From NCBI GenBank assembly GCA_963734275.1, contig CAVTGO010000006.1, forward strand, positions 97,503-161,502: 64,000 nucleotides of DNA, given 5' to 3'. The position numbers and the translations under genes are program-made. Positions 52,093-64,000 of this stretch are shown one piece after another. The notes beneath the pieces were generated by a model. It was not told the origin of the DNA. It did not search any database and was given only the letters and a program-made list of their open reading frames with translations. This DNA comes from an uncultured Actinomycetes bacterium. Lineage in GTDB: Bacteria; Actinomycetota; UBA4738; HRBIN12. Position 1 is the first letter of the stretch; each line of letters opens with the position of its first letter.

Positions 52093-52170
52093 CGCGGCTC
52101 CATCGGAACTACCCGGCCGGGTGTGACGTGGTTCACTGCGCGTCGAACGCGCGGTCGGTACCGTCGGCGC

Positions 52171-53349
52171 ATGGGCATGCTGCGATCGGCCTTCGACGAG
52201 CTGCGGGCCGAGGATCTGCGCTTCGCGGGAGACGACGATCTGGAGTCCGACCTCGTCGAGCTCGAGCGCGCGGCTGGCATCCTCGAGGTCGAGCGATCCC
52301 GACGCATCCTCGAGTTCGAGCGTCGGCAGGTCTTCCGGCGCGACGGGCATCTATCGGTCGCGTCGTGGATCGCCGCGCGGTTCCGGCTCTCGTGGTCGTC
52401 GGCGATGGGGCAGGTCCGACAGGCGCGGGCCTTGGACCGGATGCCGCGTGCGCGTTCGGCGCTCGCGGAGGGCGAGGTGTCGCGATCGGCGGTCGGGATG
52501 CTCGCCACGGCGCGCGAAGCGGACCCGTACGCGTTCGCGCGCGCCGAGGCCGGACTGGTCGAGGCCGCCCGCTCCATGCCGATGGCGGAGCTGAAGGGCA
52601 CCCTCGCCTACTGGCGGCAGGTCGCCGAGCCCCAGCGCTTCGAGCGTGAGCACGAGCGCATGCTGGAGCGTCGACGGCTCCACGTGTCGGCCACGTTCGA
52701 GGGCATGGTGCGCGTCGACGGCGACCTCGACCCCGAGACCGGGCAGACGCTAATGACGGCGCTCCGCAGCATCCAGGACGCGCATACGCGGAGTGGCCCC
52801 GATCTGCGGAACCCGGCGCAGCGGCGGGCGGACGCCATCGGCGAGCTCAGCCGCTGGTGGCTCGACGGGTCGGACCGGCCGGTGGTGGCCGGCGAGCGCC
52901 CGCACGTGACCGTGACGATGGACCTCGAGGCGCTCGAGGGGCGCGTGGGCCGGCGGTGCCAGCTCGACGACGCGGGGAGGGTGCCCCAGGAGGCGGCGCG
53001 GCGGATCGCGTGCGACGCCACCGTGGCGCGTGTGATCACCTCGGCGCGCTCGGAGCCGCTCGACGTGGGCCGGCGCACATCGGTCGTACCGGCGCCGCTC
53101 CGTCGCGCGGTCGCGATCCGCGATGCGCGCTGCCGGTTCCCGGGCTGCGACCGGCCGCCGGGCTGGTGCGACGCGCACCACGTCCGGCATTGGGCCGATG
53201 GCGGGGCGACCGCGCTCGACAACCTCGTGCTGCTGTGCCGGGCGCATCACCGGATCGTGCACAAGGGCTTCGGGCTGGAGATGGTGGACGGGCGGCCGGC
53301 GTTCTCGCGTCCCGACGGGTCGGTGATCGAGGACCGGGCGCCGCCGTAG
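52171..53349 (+). CDS. HNH endonuclease with DUF222 N-terminal domain (13E12-repeat-like)
   Basis: Track ORF 52123..53349, with the start moved to ATG 52171. Motifs: RCRFPGCDRPPGWCDAHHVRHWADGG...LCRAHHRIVH. Confidence 0.85.
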   Translation: MGMLRSAFDELRAEDLRFAGDDDLESDLVELERAAGILEVERSRRILEFERRQVFRRDGHLSVASWIAARFRLSWSSAMGQVRQARALDRMPRARSALAEGEVSRSAVGMLATAREADPYAFARAEAGLVEAARSMPMAELKGTLAYWRQVAEPQRFEREHERMLERRRLHVSATFEGMVRVDGDLDPETGQTLMTALRSIQDAHTRSGPDLRNPAQRRADAIGELSRWWLDGSDRPVVAGERPHVTVTMDLEALEGRVGRRCQLDDAGRVPQEAARRIACDATVARVITSARSEPLDVGRRTSVVPAPLRRAVAIRDARCRFPGCDRPPGWCDAHHVRHWADGGATALDNLVLLCRAHHRIVHKGFGLEMVDGRPAFSRPDGSVIEDRAPP

Positions 53350-53357
53350 CGGGCGCC

Positions 53358-54902
53358 TCAGTCCTCCTCGTGGCCGTTCCCGTTGGCGTTCGCGTGATCC
53401 GGCGGGCCGGAGCCCTCGTCCTTGCCGTGGTCGTCCTCGGACCCCTCGTCGGGGGCGGGCTCCTCGGTGACGGCTGCGGGCGGGGCCAGCTGGATCGCGA
53501 CCACGACGTCGTCGAGTGCCGCGCCGATCCGTGACGCCGCCTCGATCGTGGCGTCGTCCTCGGAGACGGCCTCGGCCAGGGTCGTGCGCACGTCGTCGAT
53601 CGGCCCGGCTAGCTTCTCGAGGTCGTCGCCCTCCTCGTAGTGCTCGAGGATCGACTCGACGTCCTTGCGCAGATCCCCTGCCACCCCTTCCGTGATCTGG
53701 CCGCCCGCCTGCTCGGCGGCGACGGCGGAGAACAGGCCCGCGAACGCGTCGGTCACGCCGAGCGACCCGGCGGGCGACGTGCTGGCCGTCGGACCCGTGG
53801 GCTCCTCGGTCGTCGCACCCGCCTCCTGGGACCGGCGGAGCTCGCGGCGCGCCCCGGCCAGATCGGAGTCATCGAGGAGCAGGACGGCGAGGACCCCGAG
53901 GATCGCGAGCCCGGCGACGATCGGGATCCAGTTCGGGAAGCCCCGCGACGCCCGGTGCTGCCCCGCGCGGGGCACGATGGGCACGGGCCGGGTCTCGGCC
54001 GCGTCGTCCTCGACCACCGCGACGAGCGGCATCGTTGCGGTCGGGTCATCGTCGATGACCGCAGCCGCGAGGGCGTGCTCGAGCTCGGCCGCCGAACCGT
54101 AGCGCTGCGCCGGATCCTTCTCGAGGGCGCGGACGACGACCGCGTCCAGGTCCTCGGGGACGGGGACCACCGACGAGGGCGGTGGCGCCGGCTCGTTCAC
54201 GTGCTGGTACAGGGCCGCCACGGGTGAGTCCGCGACGAACGGCGGCCGGCCGGCGAGCATCTGGAACACCACGCACCCGAGCGCGTAGATGTCGGATCGC
54301 TCGTCGCCGGGCTCGCCGCGCGCCTGCTCGGGCGACAGGTACGAGGCGCTGCCGATCACCGCGCCGCTGCGGGTGAGCGCGTCGGTCCCGGCGGCACGCG
54401 CGATCCCGAAGTCGAGGACCTTCACGCGGCCGTCCTCGGTGAGCATCACGTTGCCGGGCTTCACGTCACGGTGGATCACGCCGGCCTCGTGGGCGGCCGC
54501 GAGCGCGTGACACACCTCGGCCGCGATGGTGACCACTCGCCGGGGATCGAGGCGTCCCTCACGCTTGAGGAGCTCGCCGAGGGTCTCGCCCTCGACGAGC
54601 TCGGTCACGATGTACTGCGTCTCACCGTCCGAGCCGCTGTCGTAGACCGCGACGATGCTCGGGTGGTTGAGGGAGGCGGCGTGGCGAGCCTCGGCCCGGA
54701 ACCGCCGCACGAAGGACTCGTCCCGGTCGTACGGAGGCGCCAGCACCTTCAGCGCGACGGGGCGGCGGAGCTTGCGGTCGGTCCCGCGATGGACGCGAGC
54801 CATCCCACCCTCGCCGAGCAGGGGCCCGAGCTCGTACCGGTCCGCGAGGACCGTGGTCGCCTGCTGCACCCGAGAACTGTACCCGGAGAGCTGCCCGCTC
54901 AA
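53358..54902 (-). CDS. Ser/Thr protein kinase (Hanks type) with TM helix and acidic extracytoplasmic domain
   Basis: Track ORF of 514 aa: GEGGMARVHRG, VALKVL, HRDVKPGNVML, DFGIAR, SPEQARG, and the TM helix WIPIVAGLAILGVLAVLLL. Confidence 0.92.
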   Translation of the reverse strand: MSGQLSGYSSRVQQATTVLADRYELGPLLGEGGMARVHRGTDRKLRRPVALKVLAPPYDRDESFVRRFRAEARHAASLNHPSIVAVYDSGSDGETQYIVTELVEGETLGELLKREGRLDPRRVVTIAAEVCHALAAAHEAGVIHRDVKPGNVMLTEDGRVKVLDFGIARAAGTDALTRSGAVIGSASYLSPEQARGEPGDERSDIYALGCVVFQMLAGRPPFVADSPVAALYQHVNEPAPPPSSVVPVPEDLDAVVVRALEKDPAQRYGSAAELEHALAAAVIDDDPTATMPLVAVVEDDAAETRPVPIVPRAGQHRASRGFPNWIPIVAGLAILGVLAVLLLDDSDLAGARRELRRSQEAGATTEEPTGPTASTSPAGSLGVTDAFAGLFSAVAAEQAGGQITEGVAGDLRKDVESILEHYEEGDDLEKLAGPIDDVRTTLAEAVSEDDATIEAASRIGAALDDVVVAIQLAPPAAVTEEPAPDEGSEDDHGKDEGSGPPDHANANGNGHEED

Positions 54903-54912
54903 GCCGGGGAAG

Positions 54913-55530
54913 CTACCCGGCCCCGCCGCCGGTCCCGCCGCCGCCTCCTCCGCCTCCGCCCGAGAACCCGCCCGAGCTGAAGCCGCTCGACGAGCTGCTC
55001 GAGCCGGATCCGCCGGTGGTGCTGCGGCTCACGCTCGCCATCGACGACACGACGATGGCCGGGGTCGCGGCCTGGAAGCTGCGCCACGCGTTGATCCCGG
55101 CCAAGCCGCTCGGCCCGCCCGGGATCGGCGAGCGGAGCGTCTCGACCGGCACGAGCGCCGTCACCTGCTTCTCGACCTCGTCGGCCACGTTCAGCGCGAC
55201 GGCCCACTCGAGGTAGCGGTCCCAGATCACGACCGCGAGCGCGGGCGCGTTCGGGAGGTCGGAGAAGTCCTTCAGGTACGTTCGGAACGCGCCGAGCCGC
55301 ATCACGCGCCGACGATCGTCCACGTGCAGCCTCGCCGGGATGATGCGGAGCGCCGCGATCAGGGAGAGCGCCGCGACCGGCACGAGCCACCACCCGATCC
55401 GGCCGCCGAGCCCCCACACGGCCGTCCAGATGCCGTACCCGGCCGCGGCGACGACCACGACCGCCGCCCCCGTGGACTCGAAGCGAGCGTCGCCCTTCTG
55501 GATCCGGCGGATCATGTCGGCGGACTTCAT
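54913..55530 (-). CDS. DUF2207-C-terminal-like membrane protein with Gly/Ser tail (possibly 5'-truncated fragment)
   Basis: This is the last 205 codons of track ORF 54913..56742 from ATG 55530. It has two TM helices, FRTYLKDF...VIWDRYLEWAVALNV and the tail GFSGGGGGGGGGTGGGAG. Its stop lies 10 nt before the kinase start. Confidence 0.5.
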   Translation of the reverse strand: MKSADMIRRIQKGDARFESTGAAVVVVAAAGYGIWTAVWGLGGRIGWWLVPVAALSLIAALRIIPARLHVDDRRRVMRLGAFRTYLKDFSDLPNAPALAVVIWDRYLEWAVALNVADEVEKQVTALVPVETLRSPIPGGPSGLAGINAWRSFQAATPAIVVSSMASVSRSTTGGSGSSSSSSGFSSGGFSGGGGGGGGGTGGGAG

Positions 55531-56730
55531 CCGCACGCCGCTCAGCCACGTGTTGTAACGGGCAGGATGGCCCGGCTGTTGCCAGTGCCGCTGCCAGCGG
55601 AACACCTTGCAGCCGGGGACGCCCAACCGGGTCATCGCCGCGCGCACGAAGTCGGGAACCACGCCCAGGTCCTCCGCCACGATCGTGGCGCCAGACGCCA
55701 GGAACACGCGCAGCACGTGTTCGCCCAGCGCCACCTGCGCCGCTTCCTCGGCCGGGGTGAAACCGAACGCGCCGCCGGGCTCGCGGAAGAACGTGCGGAA
55801 GAAACCGACCACGTGGTCCACCCGGTAGCCGTCGAACAGGTCCGCGTTCCGGCGGGCGCGCGCCGTCAGCCACTCGAACCCGCCGCGCTCCATCACGTCC
55901 CATCGGTAGACGGGCAGGTTCCAGTCCTGACCGGTGTCGCTGAACGCGTCGGGCGGAACGCCGAGCGACACGTCGAGGCGGAATTCGCCTTGACGCGCCC
56001 AGACGTCGGCGCTGTCCAGCGCCACCATGAACGGCAGGTCGCCGAAGATGACCACGTCTCCGGCGGCGTCGCGCGCCGCCCGCCACTGCTCGTCGGCGAT
56101 CCACTGCAGATACGACCGGTAGCGGATCTCGCCGTCCAGCGCGGATTCGCGCGGCCTCGAGCGCCCCGGCTTCCCGGTCGCGCAGCGAAGCCGGCCACTC
56201 GGTCCAGGGGCGGCCGCCGTGCTCGTGATGCAGCGCGCGGAAGAGCGCGTAGGCCTCGATCCACCACTCTTCGCGCTCGACGAAAGCGCGAAACGCCGCG
56301 CGCGCGTCGCCGTGCCGCCGCGTACGTCAACGTCATCGAAGCGCGCGAAGGCGCGGCGCAGCGCGTGATCCTTCAGCGCGCGCACCTCGCGGTAGCTCGA
56401 CGCGGGCGCGAGGCGCGGAGCGCGGCCAGCCTTTCGGTCCACTGCGGCTCGAGCCCGCCCTCGCCGCCCAGGGCCTCGAAATCCGGCAGCCCGGCCAGCG
56501 AGATGAACGCCGGGTCGATCGCCATCCCGCTGAGCGCCGAGTACGGCGACGTCTCGTGCGCTGGCAGCTCGTTGATCGGCAGCAGCTGGATCAGCGACGT
56601 TGGCCGGCCGCCTTCGAGCCAGCGTGCGCAGCGGGCCCAGGCCGCCGATCTCGCCGATGCCCCAGTCCAGCCGCGACCGCAGCGAGAACAGCGGCAGCAT
56701 CAGCCCGGCGCGGCGCCCCGGGCTCATCAT
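55531..56730 (-). pseudogene. malQ: 4-alpha-glucanotransferase (GH77, MalQ) remnant: at least 4 frame changes, C-terminal ~125 aa missing
   Basis: GLMLPLFSLRSRLDWGIGEIGGL, YLQWIADEQW, GDLPFMVALDSADVW, PPDAFSDTGQDWNLPVYRWD, YRVDHVVGFFR, AEDLGVVPDFV, PGCKVFRW. Interior segments (LIQLLPINELPAHETSPYSALSGMAIDP, EREEWWIEAYALF) are readable only in other frames. Confidence 0.8.
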
Positions 56731-57909
56731 GACGGCGTGCACGCGTGCCGCAGCGTGCGCTCGAACGCGTCAGCGAAACGTGGCGTCCGCCGGCAGCAGG
56801 CTGACCACCAGGAACGCCTCGTGCGTCGAAGTCGAAGAAGTAGCCGGGGTGCGCGAGCACGTGCTCGCGTTCCAGCAGGCTCAGCGGCCAGCGCCTCCTC
56901 GGATTGCAGCGCCGGCACGCGGACGACCACCGTCCAGCCGCCCTCCACCGGCAGGACGGTAGCACGCGGGAAAGCTGGCCGCGATGCTCGCGGGCGTGCG
57001 CCAGGTTCCGCGCGCACGCGGGCGTGTATCGCCTCGCGCACCGCCCCGCCCGCCTGGAGCAGCGAGCCGGCGGCCAGCTGCACCGGCGTGCCGACCGACA
57101 GGTAGGTGTCGGCGATGTGCTCCAGACCGTCGAGCGCCTCGCGGCGCTCGGCGTCGGGGCCGCCGACGATGATCCACCCCAGCTTGACCTGCGGCAGCCC
57201 CAGCGTCTTCGACGCGCCGCCCAGCGAAAACGTCAGCACCGGCGCGTTCACTGCCAGATCCGATCGCGGCGCCCGCGCGTCCAGCAGATAGTCGGCGAAC
57301 ACCTCGTCCACGATCAGCGCCCAGCCGCGATCCCGGCAGATCGCCTGCAAGGGCGCGCACCTCGCCTTCGTCGAGGCAGGAGCCGGTCGGGTTGTTGGGC
57401 GACACGAGCGACGCAGCGGCCCTGACGTGCTGCCGGTGCGGCCTCGACCGTGGCGAGATCGACCTCCCACCGGCCGTGAAAGCGCAGGCGGTAGGCGTGC
57501 GTCGCCACGCCCTCGGCGCGGGCCAGGTGCTCGAACAGCGGGTAGCTGGGCCGCGGCACCAGCACCGCTCTCGCCGGGTTCGCACAGCAGCTTGAACAGC
57601 CAGCCGTAGGCCTCGCTGGTGCTGGCGGTCAGCACGACCTGCTCGGGGGCGACCACCGCGCCTCGCGCGCATGGTCGGCGGCCACCGCCTCACGCGCCGC
57701 CGGCAGCCCGAGCGGCTGCGGATCGTAGCGCAGCGCCGACGGCTGTCCGAGCGGCGCCAGCAGATCGCCGGGATACGGCAGGCCCACGCGGGTGGGGTTC
57801 GACTCGGTCAGATCGGCGATCGCCACGCCGCCGGCCCGCAGGCGCGTCGAGCGCGCGCGTCAGCTGCGTTCGGCGCTGCGCCTCGCGGCACCCGGGACGA
57901 CAGGGTCAT
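56727..57909 (-). pseudogene. class I/II PLP aminotransferase with at least 8 frame changes
   Basis: Fragments spread over three frames: IADLTESNPTRVGLPYP, VVLTASTSEAYGWLFKLLCEPGE, VPRPSYPLFEHLA, VSPNNPTGS, ALIVDEVFADY, SLGGASKTLGLPQVKLGW, HPGYFFDF. The ATG at 57909 and the stop at 56727 overlap neighbouring genes. Confidence 0.75.
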
Positions 57910-57927
57910 GAACGGTTCATTCGCGCG

Positions 57928-59864
57928 TCAGGCGCGAGCGAGCGCGGAGTACTCCAGCATCTGCGCCTCGAGGTCGCACGGATAGGACACCTCGACGTCG
58001 ACGATGCTGCCGTCGGGCCCGCGCCGGGCGACAGGCGGGGCATCACGAACGCGGAGTAGGACGGCAGCCGCAGCGCGTCCACGCGCGCCACCACCTCGTC
58101 GCGCAGCGACGGATCGAAGTGCACGCCGTAGTCCTCGATCAGCGCGCGCGCCGCCTCGTAGTCGCCCTCGCTCTTGATGCGCTGCACTTCGGCGAGCAGC
58201 GCGCCGACGCCGGCGTGAAACGCGCCGGCGTCGACCATCGACGAAGTAGGTCTTGCCGTCGCGCCGGCGCACCTCGATCGCGTTCGTGTGCGCGGCGCAG
58301 CCAGTTGACGATCAGCTGGCGGTTGCGCATGTGATCTTCTTCGAGCTGGCTGCCCTCGCGCACGCGTCGCAGCTGCATCAGGGCGCCGCGCGTGTACTGT
58401 TCGTATTCGGCCGGCACGATCTCGTCGTGCGCGTGCGGCCGGCAGCAGGCCCAGCTCGACCAGCTTGGGCTCGGGCAGGAAATACAGCGCCACGAGATCG
58501 GCGCGCGCCTCTTCGAGCGCCGAGTACTGCTCCCGCAGCAGCTCGTGGCGGCGACTGCGTCAGGCCCGGGGCCATGCGGCCCGAGCCGTGCCCGATCACC
58601 TCGTGCAGCTCGGTGGTCAGATCGCGCGACAGCACGCCCCACACGCGCGTCGCGCTCGGCCTCGGCCTGCGTCCCACGAGAACTCGGTCCGCAGCCCTTC
58701 GGGCGTCGAGCGCTCGTACGCCTCGTTGACGTTGGCGAGCGACACCGACTTGCTGCCGTAGCGCTCGCGGACGGCCTGGTCGTTGGGCAGGTTGATGCCG
58801 ACCGGCGTGATCGGGCCCGAATCGCCGGTCTCGATCACGACGTCGATCGCGCTGCGCGGAGACGCCGGTCACCTCCGGCTTGCGGAAGCGCGGCGCCCAC
58901 GGCGTGTGATCCTCGAACCACTGCGGCGTGCGCGGCGATGGTCTCGATGCGCCGCGTCTTGTCGCGGTTGACGTAGGACACCAGGCCCTCCCAGGCGCCC
59001 TTCGCGCCGCGCGGGTCGAGGTAGACCTCGACGAAGCCGTTGACGGTGTCCACCGGGCTGGCGTCGTCGCGCACCCAGGCGATGTCGTAGGCCACGCGGT
59101 CCGCGTCGTCGCCGGTGCGTGTAGAAGCGGATCAGCGCGCGCAGCGCCTCGGCCGTCGGCTCGGCGGCGCGTAGGCCAGCGCATCCTCGAGATGCCGACG
59201 ATGCGGCGGATCTCGCGGTCGTAGCGCCCGCCGATCCGGCACACCTCTTCCACCAGGCCGTCGCTGCGTCTTGACCAGCCGCGAGTTCAGCGCAAAGCGC
59301 TCGCGCGAACCCCTCGAGGTCGCGCATCGACACGCCGACGTAGAGGTTGTTGGCGCTCGACTCCAGGATGTCGCGGCCCGTCACCCGGCGTCTTCTGCGT
59401 GAGAATCGGATCGACGGCCGGATCGAACAGCACCGGCGCCAGCCGCGCGGCCAGCTGCGACGGCGGTCTCTCCCTCGCGCGTCCGGAGCGGCGCGCCGCC
59501 GTCGCCGGCCGCCGTCACCGCGCGCACCCACTCGTCGGTCGTCAGCCGCAGCAGCTGCTTGCGGGCGGTGACGCCGTTGTGGGGCCCGCTGTTGATCCAG
59601 AACAGCTTCGTGTAGCGGCGCACTTCGTCGACCACGTGCGCCGGAAGGCCGCGGGCGTGGGTGAGGATGCCTTCGAGCACCGCGCGCAGCTCGAGGTTGT
59701 GGGCGTAGCGCTGGTCGTAATAGATGTCGCGTCCGGCCAGCGCGGCCAGGTAGAGATGCCACGCCAGCAGCTTGTCCGCGCAGCGGCAGCGCGGCGAAGC
59801 CGTCGGCGTAAATCTGGACGACGGACACGTCGTCCACTTGCTCGAGCAGATAGCGGCGGCTCAC
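57928..59864 (-). pseudogene. M49 (dipeptidyl-peptidase III-like) zinc peptidase with at least 14 frame changes
   Basis: Fragments: LHEVIGHGSG (HExxGH), ALEEARADLVALYFLPEPKLVELG (EExRAD), [52 protein letters not shown], and the C-terminus DVEVSYPCDLEAQMLEYSALARA*. The GTG at 59864 overlaps the upstream stop. Confidence 0.75.
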
Positions 59865-61242
59865 ACCGGGACCGTCTCGCCGTGGCTGGGCGTGTGGGCG
59901 TCCCACCCCAGCCGCTCGCGCACAAGGGCCTTGAGGGCATCCATCGGCCCGGGCTCGCCGTGCACCAGGAACAGGCGCGACGGCGCGCGCCGGCATCGCC
60001 CCGAGCCAGCGCAGGATCTCGCCGCGGTCGGCGTGCGCCGACATCGAGTTCACTTTTTCGATCCGGGCCCGCACCGGCACGAGGCGGCCGTGGATCTTGA
60101 CCTCGGTCGCGCCCTCGATCAGCTGACGGCCGCGCGTGCCCTCGGCTTGAAAGCCGGCGAAGAGCACCGTGTTGCGCGGGTCCGGCAGCGCCGCGGCGAG
60201 GTGGTGCAGCACGCGTCCGCCGGTGGCCATGCCGCTCGGCGGAGATGACCACGGCGCTGCGCCGGTTCGCGGTCAGCGCCTTCGACTGCTGCGGCGACAC
60301 CGTGGTCTGGAAGCGCGCGGTGGCGAAGGCCGACACGTTCTTGATGGTCGGGCGGATGTCCGCGATCCAGTTCGGCGGTGCGCGCGGCGTAGAACTTCAG
60401 CGCGTCGGCCGCCATCGGGCTGTCGACATAGACCGGCAGCACGGGAATGCGCCGCTCGCGCTCGAGGCGGCGAATCCAGTAGAGCAACTCCTCGACCCGG
60501 CCGATCGCGAAGGCCGGCACGATCACCTTGCCGCCGCGGGCGAGCGTGTCCCTGATCACGCGCGCGAGGCCCTCGCCGTCGTCGTCCGGCTCGTGATCGC
60601 GATCGCCGTAGGTGGATTCCACCAGCACCAGGTCGGCCGCGACCGGATCGGCCGGATCCGGCAGCACCGGACGGGCGTAGCGGCCCAGGTCGCCGCCGAA
60701 GAGGATGGTCTTGCCGCCGGACAGCCGGGCGATCACGTAGGCGGATCCCAGGAGGTGCCCCGCCGGCACGAACTCGACGCTGACACCCGGCGCGACCTCG
60801 ATCGGGCGCGCGGTAGGCCACCTGGTACAAGTGCGTCAGCGCACGGTTGGCCGCCGCTTCGTCGTAGAGCGGCTGCGCCGGCTGATGCCTGCGAGTAGCC
60901 GTGGCGGTTGGCCTGCCGCGCGTCCTCTTCCTGGATCCGTCCGGAGTCGGGCAGCACCAGGCGGCACAGGTCGGCGGTGCCCGCGGTGCAGAACACGCGG
61001 CCGTCGAACCCCTGCGCGACCAGCCGCGGCAGGTAGCCCACGTGGTCCAGGTGGGCGTGGGTCAGGACCACGGCGGCGATCGACGACGGCGGCACCGGGA
61101 AGGTCTCCCAGTTCCGCTCCCGCAGGGTCTTGAGTCCCTGGAAGAGACCGCAGTCGAACAGGACCTTCGTGCCGTCGTGCGACAACAAGTATTTCGACCC
61201 GGTGACGGTGCGTGCCGCACCGAGGAAGGTGAGTTCGGTCAC
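59861..61242 (-). pseudogene. beta-CASP MBL-fold RNA-metabolising hydrolase with at least 6 frame changes
   Basis: [111 protein letters not shown] and the C-terminus SHGETVPV*, read across several frames. Confidence 0.75.
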
Positions 61243-61283
61243 CGGGGGCAAGATATCAGGTTTCGGCGCCGGTCGACCCGCCC

Positions 61284-62024
61284 TCAGCGCAGGTGACGGC
61301 CTCCGTCGACGCGAATCGTCTGGCCGGTGATGAAGTCGCTCTCGACCAGCGACACGACCGCCTTGGCGATTTCGATCTCGCCGCCCCAGCGTCCGAGCGG
61401 CGTGGCGCGCTCGACGGCGCGAAACTCCCGGTCCGAGGTGCCCTCCGGCGCGACGATCGGCCCGGGAGCCACCGCGTTCACCAGGATCTGATCGCCGGCC
61501 AGCTCGAGGGCCAGCGCTTCGGTCAGCGCGATGACCGCGGCCTTGGCGACGTAGTAGCTCAGGTAGCCGGTGTAGCGCGGGCGGCCGCTGGCCGCCACCC
61601 AATCGGAGAAATTGATGATGCGGCCCCCGCGCAGGCGGCGCATGTGCGGCACCGCCGCCTGCGAACACAGCCACGACGCGCGCAGGTCCACGTCGAGCTG
61701 GCTGTTCCAGTCCGCCACCGTCAGATCGTCGAGCGCGATCGACTTGTAGAGCGAGGCCATGTTCACCAGGATGTCGAGGCGCCCGAGCGACGCCACCACC
61801 TCCTCGACGACCCGCGCGCAATCGTCCTCCTGGCCGAGATCCGCCTCGATGACCTGGGCCCGGCGGCCCTGAGCGCGCACCACCTCGGCGGTCTCTTCGG
61901 CGTCCGCCCGAGACGATCGAAAGACCAGCGCGACGTCGGCGCCCCCGCGCGCCAGGTGATCTGCCACCACGGCGCCGATCCGCTTGCCGCCCGTGATGAG
62001 CGCCACGCGATTGGTCAACTCCAT
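61284..62024 (-). CDS. short-chain dehydrogenase/reductase (intact)
   Basis: Track ORF of 246 aa: [39 protein letters not shown]. Confidence 0.85.
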
Positions 62025-62312
62025 AGCGCCTTAGTCTCAGGCGAGGGTCCGGACCTCGCTACCACACGCGAAAGGGCTTTCCGGGGCCGTAATACCGCCG
62101 GGGTTTTCCGTTGAAAAACGCTGGAGATCCCGCGCGTCAAGGGTTGGCCCGGATCCTGCTGAAACGCTCGAAGGGTGTGCCTCGAGATCCGAGGGTCGGT
62201 GCTTCGAGAATCGCCCCGGACCGTGTGCGTCGTGTCCCCGCCGCGACGCGCACGGCCTTTGTATTCGCGGGCTGCGGGCCACAGGCTCCGGGCTCCGGGC
62301 CCGCTCAGTCTT

Positions 62313-62352
62313 CCTTTGGCCTTTCGCCTTTAGCCTTTCGCCTTTCGCCTTA
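62313..62352. repeat. heptanucleotide tandem repeat CCTTTNG x5.7, immediately upstream of a start codon
   Basis: The units read cctttgg cctttcg cctttag cctttcg cctttcg cctta. A second mini-tandem, ggctccg x2, lies at 62284-62297. Confidence 0.8.
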
Positions 62353-62362
62353 CCATGGCCGA

Positions 62363-63116
62363 ATGCGAAGGGCGATCGCCGTCGCGGTTCTGCGCGGCGG
62401 TCGGCTTGCACGCAGCCGACCTCGACTTGGATCCCCGCGAAGTTCTGGAGGCGATCGCGCTAGGACAGTCGTCCTTCGACGACGACCGCCTTCGATTTCA
62501 TCGGCCATACCGCATCGACATCTCCCGCCCGCCGCTCGACTCGGTGGACGTGGTGACGCCGTTTCGACGCGTGGTGATCGCGGCCGAGATTCGCGCGCGG
62601 GCCGGCGATCGCCGGTTCGGCCAGCGTGACGGGCTGGAGGTGGTGGATCGCTATCCCCGCCAGGTCAGCGTTCACGCGGAGTTCACCTTCCACCCGCAGA
62701 ACACGATGGTGCTGGTACCGCGCTACGCGGTGCGCTGGCTCACCGCGAGCGGCGCCAGGATCGAGCCAGCGTTGCTGGAGGCGTCTCCGCGCTACTTCCC
62801 CAGGATCGGGAGTGGAGCCCTGCCGACGCCGTCGGGCGCAGGCGTGGTGCCTCCGAGCCTGCCGGGACGCAGTCAGCCGATGCTGGGAGCAACCGTGGTG
62901 GCGTTCTTCGATGGAGCGGCGTTGTCGAAGCCGGAGGACCCGGCGCGGACGGTGGTGATCGAGGAGGCGGGCCAGGAACTGGCCCGCCTCCCAGATCGAC
63001 TTGGTAACGAGCGTTGCGCTGAGCTTACGACAGGACCTTCACGACCACGCGGCGGTTTTCCGCACGGCCGGTGCGGTTGTTGTTCGGCGACACGGGCTTG
63101 TCCTCGCCGTAGCTGA
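62363..63116 (+). pseudogene. hypothetical secreted protein, apparent frameshift in the signal-peptide region; 3' end uncertain
   Basis: ATG 62363 gives MRRAIAVAVL, then the frame must change to continue FCAAVGLHA/ADLDLDPREVLEAI... (track ORF 62355..63116). The tail overlaps the convergent OmpA gene and is probably read-through. Confidence 0.3.
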
Positions 63117-63721
63117 TCACGTTCATCTTGTGGAGCGGCACCTGGTGCTGCTCGTAGAGATACCGCTTCACGGCTTCCGCGCGCTCGAGGCCGAGACGCT
63201 GATTCAGCTCGGGACCGCCGACGTTGTCGGTGTGGCCCTCGATCTCGATGAACACGTTGCGGGTGTCGGCCTTCAGCTGACCGACCACTGCGTCGAGACG
63301 GGCCTTCGCTTCATCCGGCAGATCGACCTTGCCGGACTTGAAGTTGCCCTGCGCCTCGTTCAGCGTCACCTCGAACAGCAGCTTGCGCGACGCCGCGATC
63401 GCGGCGTTGGTCGCGGCCACTTCGGTCACCACCTGATCGACGCGCCCGTTGACCTTGCTGCGCCGACGCCGCAGCCGCGTCCGCCGCGCCGCGCGCTTCC
63501 TGCGCCGACCGGCCAGCCGCCTCGGCCTTGGTATCCACCGTGCCGATGCGCTCTTCGTTGCGCCGCGTCCGCTCCTGGGTCTCCTCGAGCGAGCCGCTCA
63601 GCGTGTCGACCTTCGCGTTGACGTTGCCAACCTCGCCGCGCACGAATTTCTTCGTCGCGCAGGCCGGGGCAACCGCCACCGCCAGCGCGAGAACCGACAT
63701 TGCCCACAGGTTGCTACGCAT
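63025..63721 (-). pseudogene. OmpA-family peptidoglycan-associated lipoprotein with coiled-coil N-terminus (one frameshift near 63470)
   Basis: ATG 63721 follows AGAGGAGAG. Signal peptide plus lipobox MRSNLWAMSVLALAVAVAPAC, then a coiled coil. After the shift comes the OmpA_C domain (track ORF 63025..63432): IEIEGHTDNVGGPELNQRLGLERAEAVKRYL...NRRVVVKV. Confidence 0.75.
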
Positions 63722-63746
63722 GATGTGTCTCTCCTCTATGAACGAG

Positions 63747-64000
63747 CTAACTACCGGTGCGGGTTCCGGCCATGTAGCCGCCCCGCGCATGCACCACCAA
63801 GTTCCGCTTCTTCGTCCGCACTTCGAGGGGATGCCATCCAGGCCGCTCCCCAGGCTCAAAGGTGATCAGGTACTGATGACGCAACTCCGCCACCAGGCTC
63901 TGCACCGCAATCGATGCGTGGCTGGGCACGCTTGCAAAGTAGGCCTCGCCGCCGGTCCAGCGCGACAGATCCACGAGCGCGCCTTGTCCCGTAGCCCGCG
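63747..64000 (-). CDS. C-terminus of a VWA-type protein (acidobacterial VWFA-related domain-like), 5' end beyond the window
   Basis: The reading frame is open to the window edge: ...GQGALVDLSRWTGGEAYFAS...ELRHQYLITFEPGERPGWHPLEVRTKKRNLVVHARGGY. The family is recalled from memory. Confidence 0.5.
   Translation of the reverse strand, partial: RATGQGALVDLSRWTGGEAYFASVPSHASIAVQSLVAELRHQYLITFEPGERPGWHPLEVRTKKRNLVVHARGGYMAGTRTGS

Follow-up and report, generated by a model that had tools for sequence, protein, structure and literature searches.

A MalQ–DUF2207 open reading frame in an actinobacterial metagenome-assembled genome probably marks a chimeric assembly join between two phyla

A long open reading frame in the metagenome-assembled genome (MAG) of an uncultured actinobacterium appears to bridge DNA from two phyla, and sequence comparisons make it very probable that metagenome assembly created the junction within it, at positions 55566/55567, as a chimeric join. 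The window analyzed here is a stretch of 64,000 nucleotides of GenBank contig CAVTGO010000006.1 (C6:97503–161502), which belongs to a MAG of 18 contigs, 2.7 Mb in total and 88.5% complete. Three lines of evidence carry this reading: firstly, the two flanks of the junction come from different organisms; secondly, another contig of this assembly, C8, preserves an intact and syntenic alternative path; thirdly, the donor gene continues past the break in independent data. The original prediction had called the junction chimeric or recombinant while leaning to misassembly, and that leaning is borne out by the intact C8 path, by conserved gene order, by an error-laden right flank from another phylum, and by a third phylum on C8.

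The fused frame runs over 54913..56742 on the minus strand and stays open for 609 codons (609 aa), and its makeup, as described from the letters alone, holds up in the ORF listing and in Pfam. A Glyco_hydro_77 (PF02446) match covers residues 193–397 (profile positions 155–368 of 465, E 5e-57) and is followed by a DUF2207_C match over residues 418–526 (profile positions 132–246 of 247, E 1.2e-14), so that a GH77 MalQ, represented by its first ~386 residues, runs into a DUF2207 membrane protein of which the final 217 residues remain. Residues ~30–190 are out-of-frame nonsense. That the frame remains open across the junction is a matter of chance, since both genes lie on the minus strand, their phases happen to coincide and, at 72% GC, stop codons are rare. 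The MalQ–DUF2207 gene is almost certainly an assembly artefact rather than a biological fusion.

Aligning the window against the whole assembly with blastn revealed a segment of 1872 bp (53695..55566) that is 100% identical to C8:17688–19559; beyond it, in either direction, the two contigs no longer agree. Because the identity to C8 ends at 55566 and the sequences diverge afterwards, we place the chimeric breakpoint at 55566..55567: the actinobacterial genome (genome A) ends at 55566, and homology to acidobacterial DNA of the second type (genome B) begins at 55565–55568. This lies inside the interval of 55,531–55,575 that had been predicted. The A at 55567 is assignable to neither side, and the search for microhomology at the junction yielded a short, offset GGCCC-type similarity alone, which is not meaningful at 72% GC.

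The shared segment is a genuine overlap of two unmerged contigs of genome A. On C6, actinobacterial sequence with a complete kinase (514 aa) and the last 217 residues of DUF2207 is followed on the right by an acidobacterial tail; on C8, a Mesorhizobium-like head stands to the left of the segment, the kinase copy is cut at its 3' end and so lacks its C-terminal end, DUF2207 is complete (636 aa), and genes for a PLP-dependent decarboxylase, an adenosine deaminase-like protein and Fpg follow on the right. With the kinase complete only on C6 and DUF2207 only on C8, the two contigs are complementary, and the left part of C6 together with the right part of C8 restores two intact genes.

The genes to the left of the junction place it in Actinomycetota. 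The Ser/Thr protein kinase gene of genome A (53358..54902, minus strand; Pfam Pkinase, E 5e-48) is complete, and full-length homologues of its product are encoded directly downstream of DUF2207 at L086 and L090, among other loci. The adjoining 3' part of the DUF2207 gene (54913..55566, minus strand) encodes residues 420–636 and the stop codon; the 5' part is found at C8:19560–20816. The whole C8 frame (L084:1907–3817, minus strand) specifies 636 aa in which Pfam detects both PF09972 and PF20990, whereas the window ORF holds PF20990 positions 132–246 only. The suspicion that the large N-terminal domain had been lost was therefore correct: the first 419 of 636 residues, PF09972 included, are missing. 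Full-length DUF2207 homologues with 64–72% identity occur in uncultured Actinomycetota MAGs, in keeping with the actinobacterial character first ascribed to this flank.

Gene order points the same way. Six related Actinomycetota MAGs (L086, L087, L088, L090, L091 and L092) share the arrangement Fpg, PLP decarboxylase, DUF2207 and Ser/Thr kinase, the order obtained by placing the C6 left flank after the C8 right flank. Within the family itself, genome G019:C12 gives one unbroken alignment at 75% identity over the site where the window breaks. Parts of the block along the C8 path are matched in all 30 family or order relatives; the DNA to the right of 55567 is found in none of the 30. Between a PspC module and the kinase, Pfam also identified a DUF222 and HNH endonuclease gene (REP13E12-like; 52123–53349, plus strand), which is probably a mobile insertion, given that the related loci examined show no such gene at the equivalent position, and which is unrelated to the chimeric join.

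To the right of the junction the sequence is acidobacterial. Pfam and protein comparison identify the 5' three-quarters of an acidobacterial malQ (GH77) at 55567..56742 on the minus strand, corresponding to residues 1–386 of 522, and next to it a class I/II aminotransferase gene with many frameshifts (56727..57700, minus strand; Pfam Aminotran_1_2 on one fragment). Both belong to a Vicinamibacteria-like tail (55567..64000) that is colinear with CAWEBF010000034.1 and extends past the window to at least C6:166935. The best relative of this side is L063, a locus on CAWEBF010000034.1 from an Acidobacteriota MAG, whose MalQ is also the best match to the window fragment (89% protein identity); the fragment's other relatives are Acidobacteriota, mostly Vicinamibacterales, which gives a phylum to what had been called Gram-negative-like. 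By blastn, window positions 55565–62159 are colinear with L063 at 82% nucleotide identity in an alignment that ends at the junction, and farther along this acidobacterial genome G001:C34 82445–89871 aligns at 81%, bringing the colinearity to at least 13.9 kb in total. The last ~7 kb of the contig (C6:166936–173865) lie beyond the stretch matched in G001:C34, for which a single 8-kb query ending at C6:167499 was used; the final ~6 kb have 59–61% GC and no long ORFs, and this region may be yet another foreign piece.

Comparison with L063 also reveals what the window malQ has lost. The L063 protein (522 aa, GH77 profile positions 1–460 of 465) continues past the last MalQ residues of the window as ...WQTPGQPFVDPAEYPVRSMATTGTHD..., that is, QPFVDPAEYP...TGTHD..., for 136 residues beyond the junction. 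Measured against this 89%-identical orthologue, the window protein lacks 136 of 522 residues (26%), in agreement with the original estimate of roughly the last quarter. Its sequence breaks off after ...RHWQQPG, short of the TGTHD of L063, and hence includes an incomplete catalytic domain; the conserved THD motif in this C-terminal GH77 segment carries the third catalytic Asp, as in Thermus amylomaltase. A tblastn search found the missing C-terminus nowhere else in the MAG, and the downstream half of L063 likewise has no match there. Being both truncated and frameshifted, malQ as assembled is not a functional gene.

Independent soil metagenomes supply the continuation. Contigs from four independent soil runs are 96–97% identical to the right side, and all of them lose similarity to the window at 55565–55568. 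Those of three runs (X1, X3 and X5) carry on past this point as normal MalQ sequence: on the coding strand, X1 and X3 continue with GCCGTTCGTGGACCCGTCGGAGTATCCGGT, encoding QPFVDPSEYP, and X5 has a close variant; one X3 contig of 3660 nt spans the breakpoint site. From this continuation it follows that malQ is uninterrupted in the donor lineage. Index searches and read comparison turned up no public run that contains both sides joined or that represents the source sample, the best word share among public runs being 0.28 when the junction was the query and 0.14 when it was the left flank. The right side has ~97% matches in runs X1–X6, and the left side has short ~95% matches in X11, X26 and X27.

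The original prediction described the left side as frame-perfect and the right side as error-rich, a contrast that proved well founded. Third-position GC keeps a constant phase from 54.9 to 56.1 kb and switches every ~300 bp farther right, so the right side is full of frame changes. Relative to L063 it contains 53 single-base insertions and 20 single-base deletions in 6.5 kb, an indel rate of ~1 per 100–200 bp with an insertion excess of 2.5:1, in sequence that is only ~3% diverged from free-living acidobacterial DNA. The extra bases belong to the window, since L063 keeps long open frames. Many of the insertions fall at, or a few bases from, one-base gaps in Illumina-derived contigs (X1, X2 and X5); positions 56398, 56628, 56884, 56963, 57407, 57413, 57417, 57433 and 57570 are examples among many. 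Against such contigs, malQ shows extra bases at 56398, 56407 and 56628, and the aminotransferase gene shows them over 56884–57570, with further indels against L063. Within malQ, the stretch from 55567 to ~56130 is by chance free of indels, which explains the clean GH77 match beside the junction; farther on, several single-base indels occur.

Natural decay of bacterial pseudogenes is deletion-biased and involves far fewer indels per substitution. The errors on the right side look instead like those of an under-corrected long-read consensus. They show no clear concentration in homopolymers and so do not allow the sequencing platform to be named. Within the tail, 61275–62030 has 0 gaps against L063 and includes an intact SDR gene, as compared to ~1 per 100–200 bp over 56130–61078; since acidobacterial colinearity is unbroken there, this abrupt drop at 61250–62030 looks like a change in read support or sequence quality rather than a second join.

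Composition changes at the same place. Measured from the MAG core, tetranucleotide distances are 0.012–0.017 over the 16 kb to the left of the junction, inside the core's own spread of 0.0154 ± 0.0048, and 0.033–0.036 over the 15 kb to the right, which are closer to acidobacterial than to actinobacterial MAGs. The tetranucleotide comparison of the two sides that had been proposed as a check therefore reveals a step that coincides with the junction.

A similar picture emerges at the other end of the overlap. The head of C8 (1–17687) is ORF-poor, with frameshifted genes and a foreign composition. The LacI-type gene adjoining the overlap, which is cut ~9 codons before its stop at C8:17687, has 97% protein identity to Mesorhizobium sp. 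KR9-304, and C8:14396–17684, the part over which a Mesorhizobium-like origin was traced, aligns to that genome at 87% nucleotide identity. With an acidobacterial tail on C6 and a Mesorhizobium-like head on C8, one actinobacterial locus is joined to two other phyla. A single acidobacterial insert made up of the C6 tail and the C8 head was considered and rejected, as the head, besides being Mesorhizobium-like, has no colinear match in the acidobacterial genome G001.

Elsewhere in the MAG, ORF-poor 5-kb bins with deviant tetranucleotide composition cluster at contig ends (C1, C4, C5, C6, C7, C8, C10, C11, C12, C14 and C18) and make up ~10% of its bases. The far end of C8 (~92000–100742) has 54% GC and no long ORFs, such that both ends of this contig look foreign. 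At C5:143355–149590, ~17 head-to-tail copies of a 366-bp unit, 99.7–99.96% identical, run up to the contig end; the array could be a real satellite, a repeat-protein gene or an assembly artefact. Contig ends match contig interiors exactly at C3:1934–3473 and C7:62783–64322 and at C17:173029–173540 and C12:18128–18639, and a near-exact overlap (99.5%) links C6:9078–11891 with C9:10990–13802. These additional overlaps suggest more unmerged or misjoined places in the MAG.

We propose that C6 would follow genome A as far as 55566 and then pass into a low-coverage, poorly corrected piece of the acidobacterial genome B, while genome A would continue on C8, which itself would bear a Mesorhizobium-like foreign head before the overlap. 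The ends of well-covered actinobacterial contigs would thus have been extended with a few reads, or along a low-coverage path, from other organisms, and C6 and C8, though true neighbors, would thereby have been left unmerged with their 1.9-kb overlap. The most likely cause is either chimeric long reads or an unresolved branch of the assembly graph.

Taken together, all biological alternatives are unlikely. The foremost among them is a scar of horizontal transfer or rearrangement, in which the acidobacterial block truly sits inside the actinobacterial DUF2207 gene and its foreign genes are decaying into pseudogenes. It would account for a contig that is continuous over the junction with an open frame and for foreign genes that are broken and pseudogene-like, and the mobile-type DUF222-HNH gene lies only 2.2 kb away. 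However, an intact DUF2207 locus sharing 1872 identical bases is present in the same assembly, none of the 30 relatives has the insert, a third phylum adjoins the overlap on its far side, and like tails recur at many contig ends; nor does the combination of so high an indel rate, biased to insertions, with such slight divergence resemble decay. We therefore regard a scar as very unlikely. That the join is real in part of the population, with at least 14 kb of acidobacterial chromosome lodged in the DUF2207 gene of a soil actinobacterium, seems to us slightly less probable still; if true, a recent transfer between phyla would have been caught in the act, and the apparent errors would represent very rapid, insertion-biased decay.

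Less probable again is a Campbell-type integration, in which the chromosome took up by recombination a circular element with its own 1.9-kb copy of the kinase/DUF2207 region, so that two direct 1872-bp copies would now flank at least 38 kb of foreign DNA (from the C6 tail to the C8 head). The order of left genome A, copy and foreign DNA on one contig, and of foreign DNA, copy and right genome A on the other, is formally the topology that such an event predicts. Yet such an insert would need to combine chromosomal DNA from Acidobacteriota and from Mesorhizobium in one mosaic. Each piece follows the chromosome of its taxon colinearly and breaks off within a gene, the foreign DNA carries sequencing-type errors, and the two pieces are linked to each other nowhere; in an unsystematic look, we saw no element genes beside either junction. 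An expressed fusion protein, a shortened 4-alpha-glucanotransferase with a membrane anchor, has a single 609-aa open frame in its favor and can be dismissed as next to impossible, because the N-terminal third of the frame is out of phase (the GH77 match being limited to profile positions 155–368), the segment with the conserved TGTHD motif is missing, and no homologue with the same architecture exists among 80 MalQ and 16 DUF2207 loci.

If the C6 tail is a misjoin and the true genome A runs on via C8, as we consider most probable, the fused ORF would exist in no real cell. The last ~20.8 kb of C6 (window positions 55567–64000 and the sequence beyond) would not be attributable to the actinobacterium, nor would the initial ~17.7 kb of C8. 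Features between 55.5 and 64 kb would accordingly be read as acidobacterial genes with uncorrected sequencing errors, and not as actinobacterial biology, programmed frameshifting or pseudogenization. The deviant bins that make up ~10% of the bases are suspect; tracing to other phyla covered just two of these regions, the tail of C6 and the head of C8. Marker-based (CheckM-type) contamination of the MAG is 1.63%, and this low value does not exclude such joins. The finding matters for data hygiene only, as a warning about this MAG.

Set beside known systems, each half of the fused ORF is a known kind of protein cut short. The DUF2207 part matches the final 217 residues of the C8 protein without a difference, the latter being an Actinomycetota member of this family of predicted membrane proteins with PF09972 and PF20990; the window retains the C-terminal third alone, while on C8 the gene is ordinary and intact. 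The MalQ part is 89% identical to the MalQ of CAWEBF010000034.1 and 60–69% identical to many Vicinamibacterales MalQ proteins, from which it differs in ending after residue ~386 of 522 and in having a frameshifted first third. As for the join itself, a preprint reports that inter-species chimeric contigs are common in near-complete MAGs and that marker-based estimates miss foreign sequence joined within a contig (bioRxiv 10.64898/2026.10.15.759294). Here, too, two unrelated genomes share one contig, genes are cut on both sides, and a taxonomic and compositional step at the join went unseen by the marker-based estimate. Unlike such contigs, however, the foreign part in the present case is markedly error-rich, with single-base insertions, and because the correct path survives on C8 with an exact overlap, the artefact can be diagnosed without the reads.
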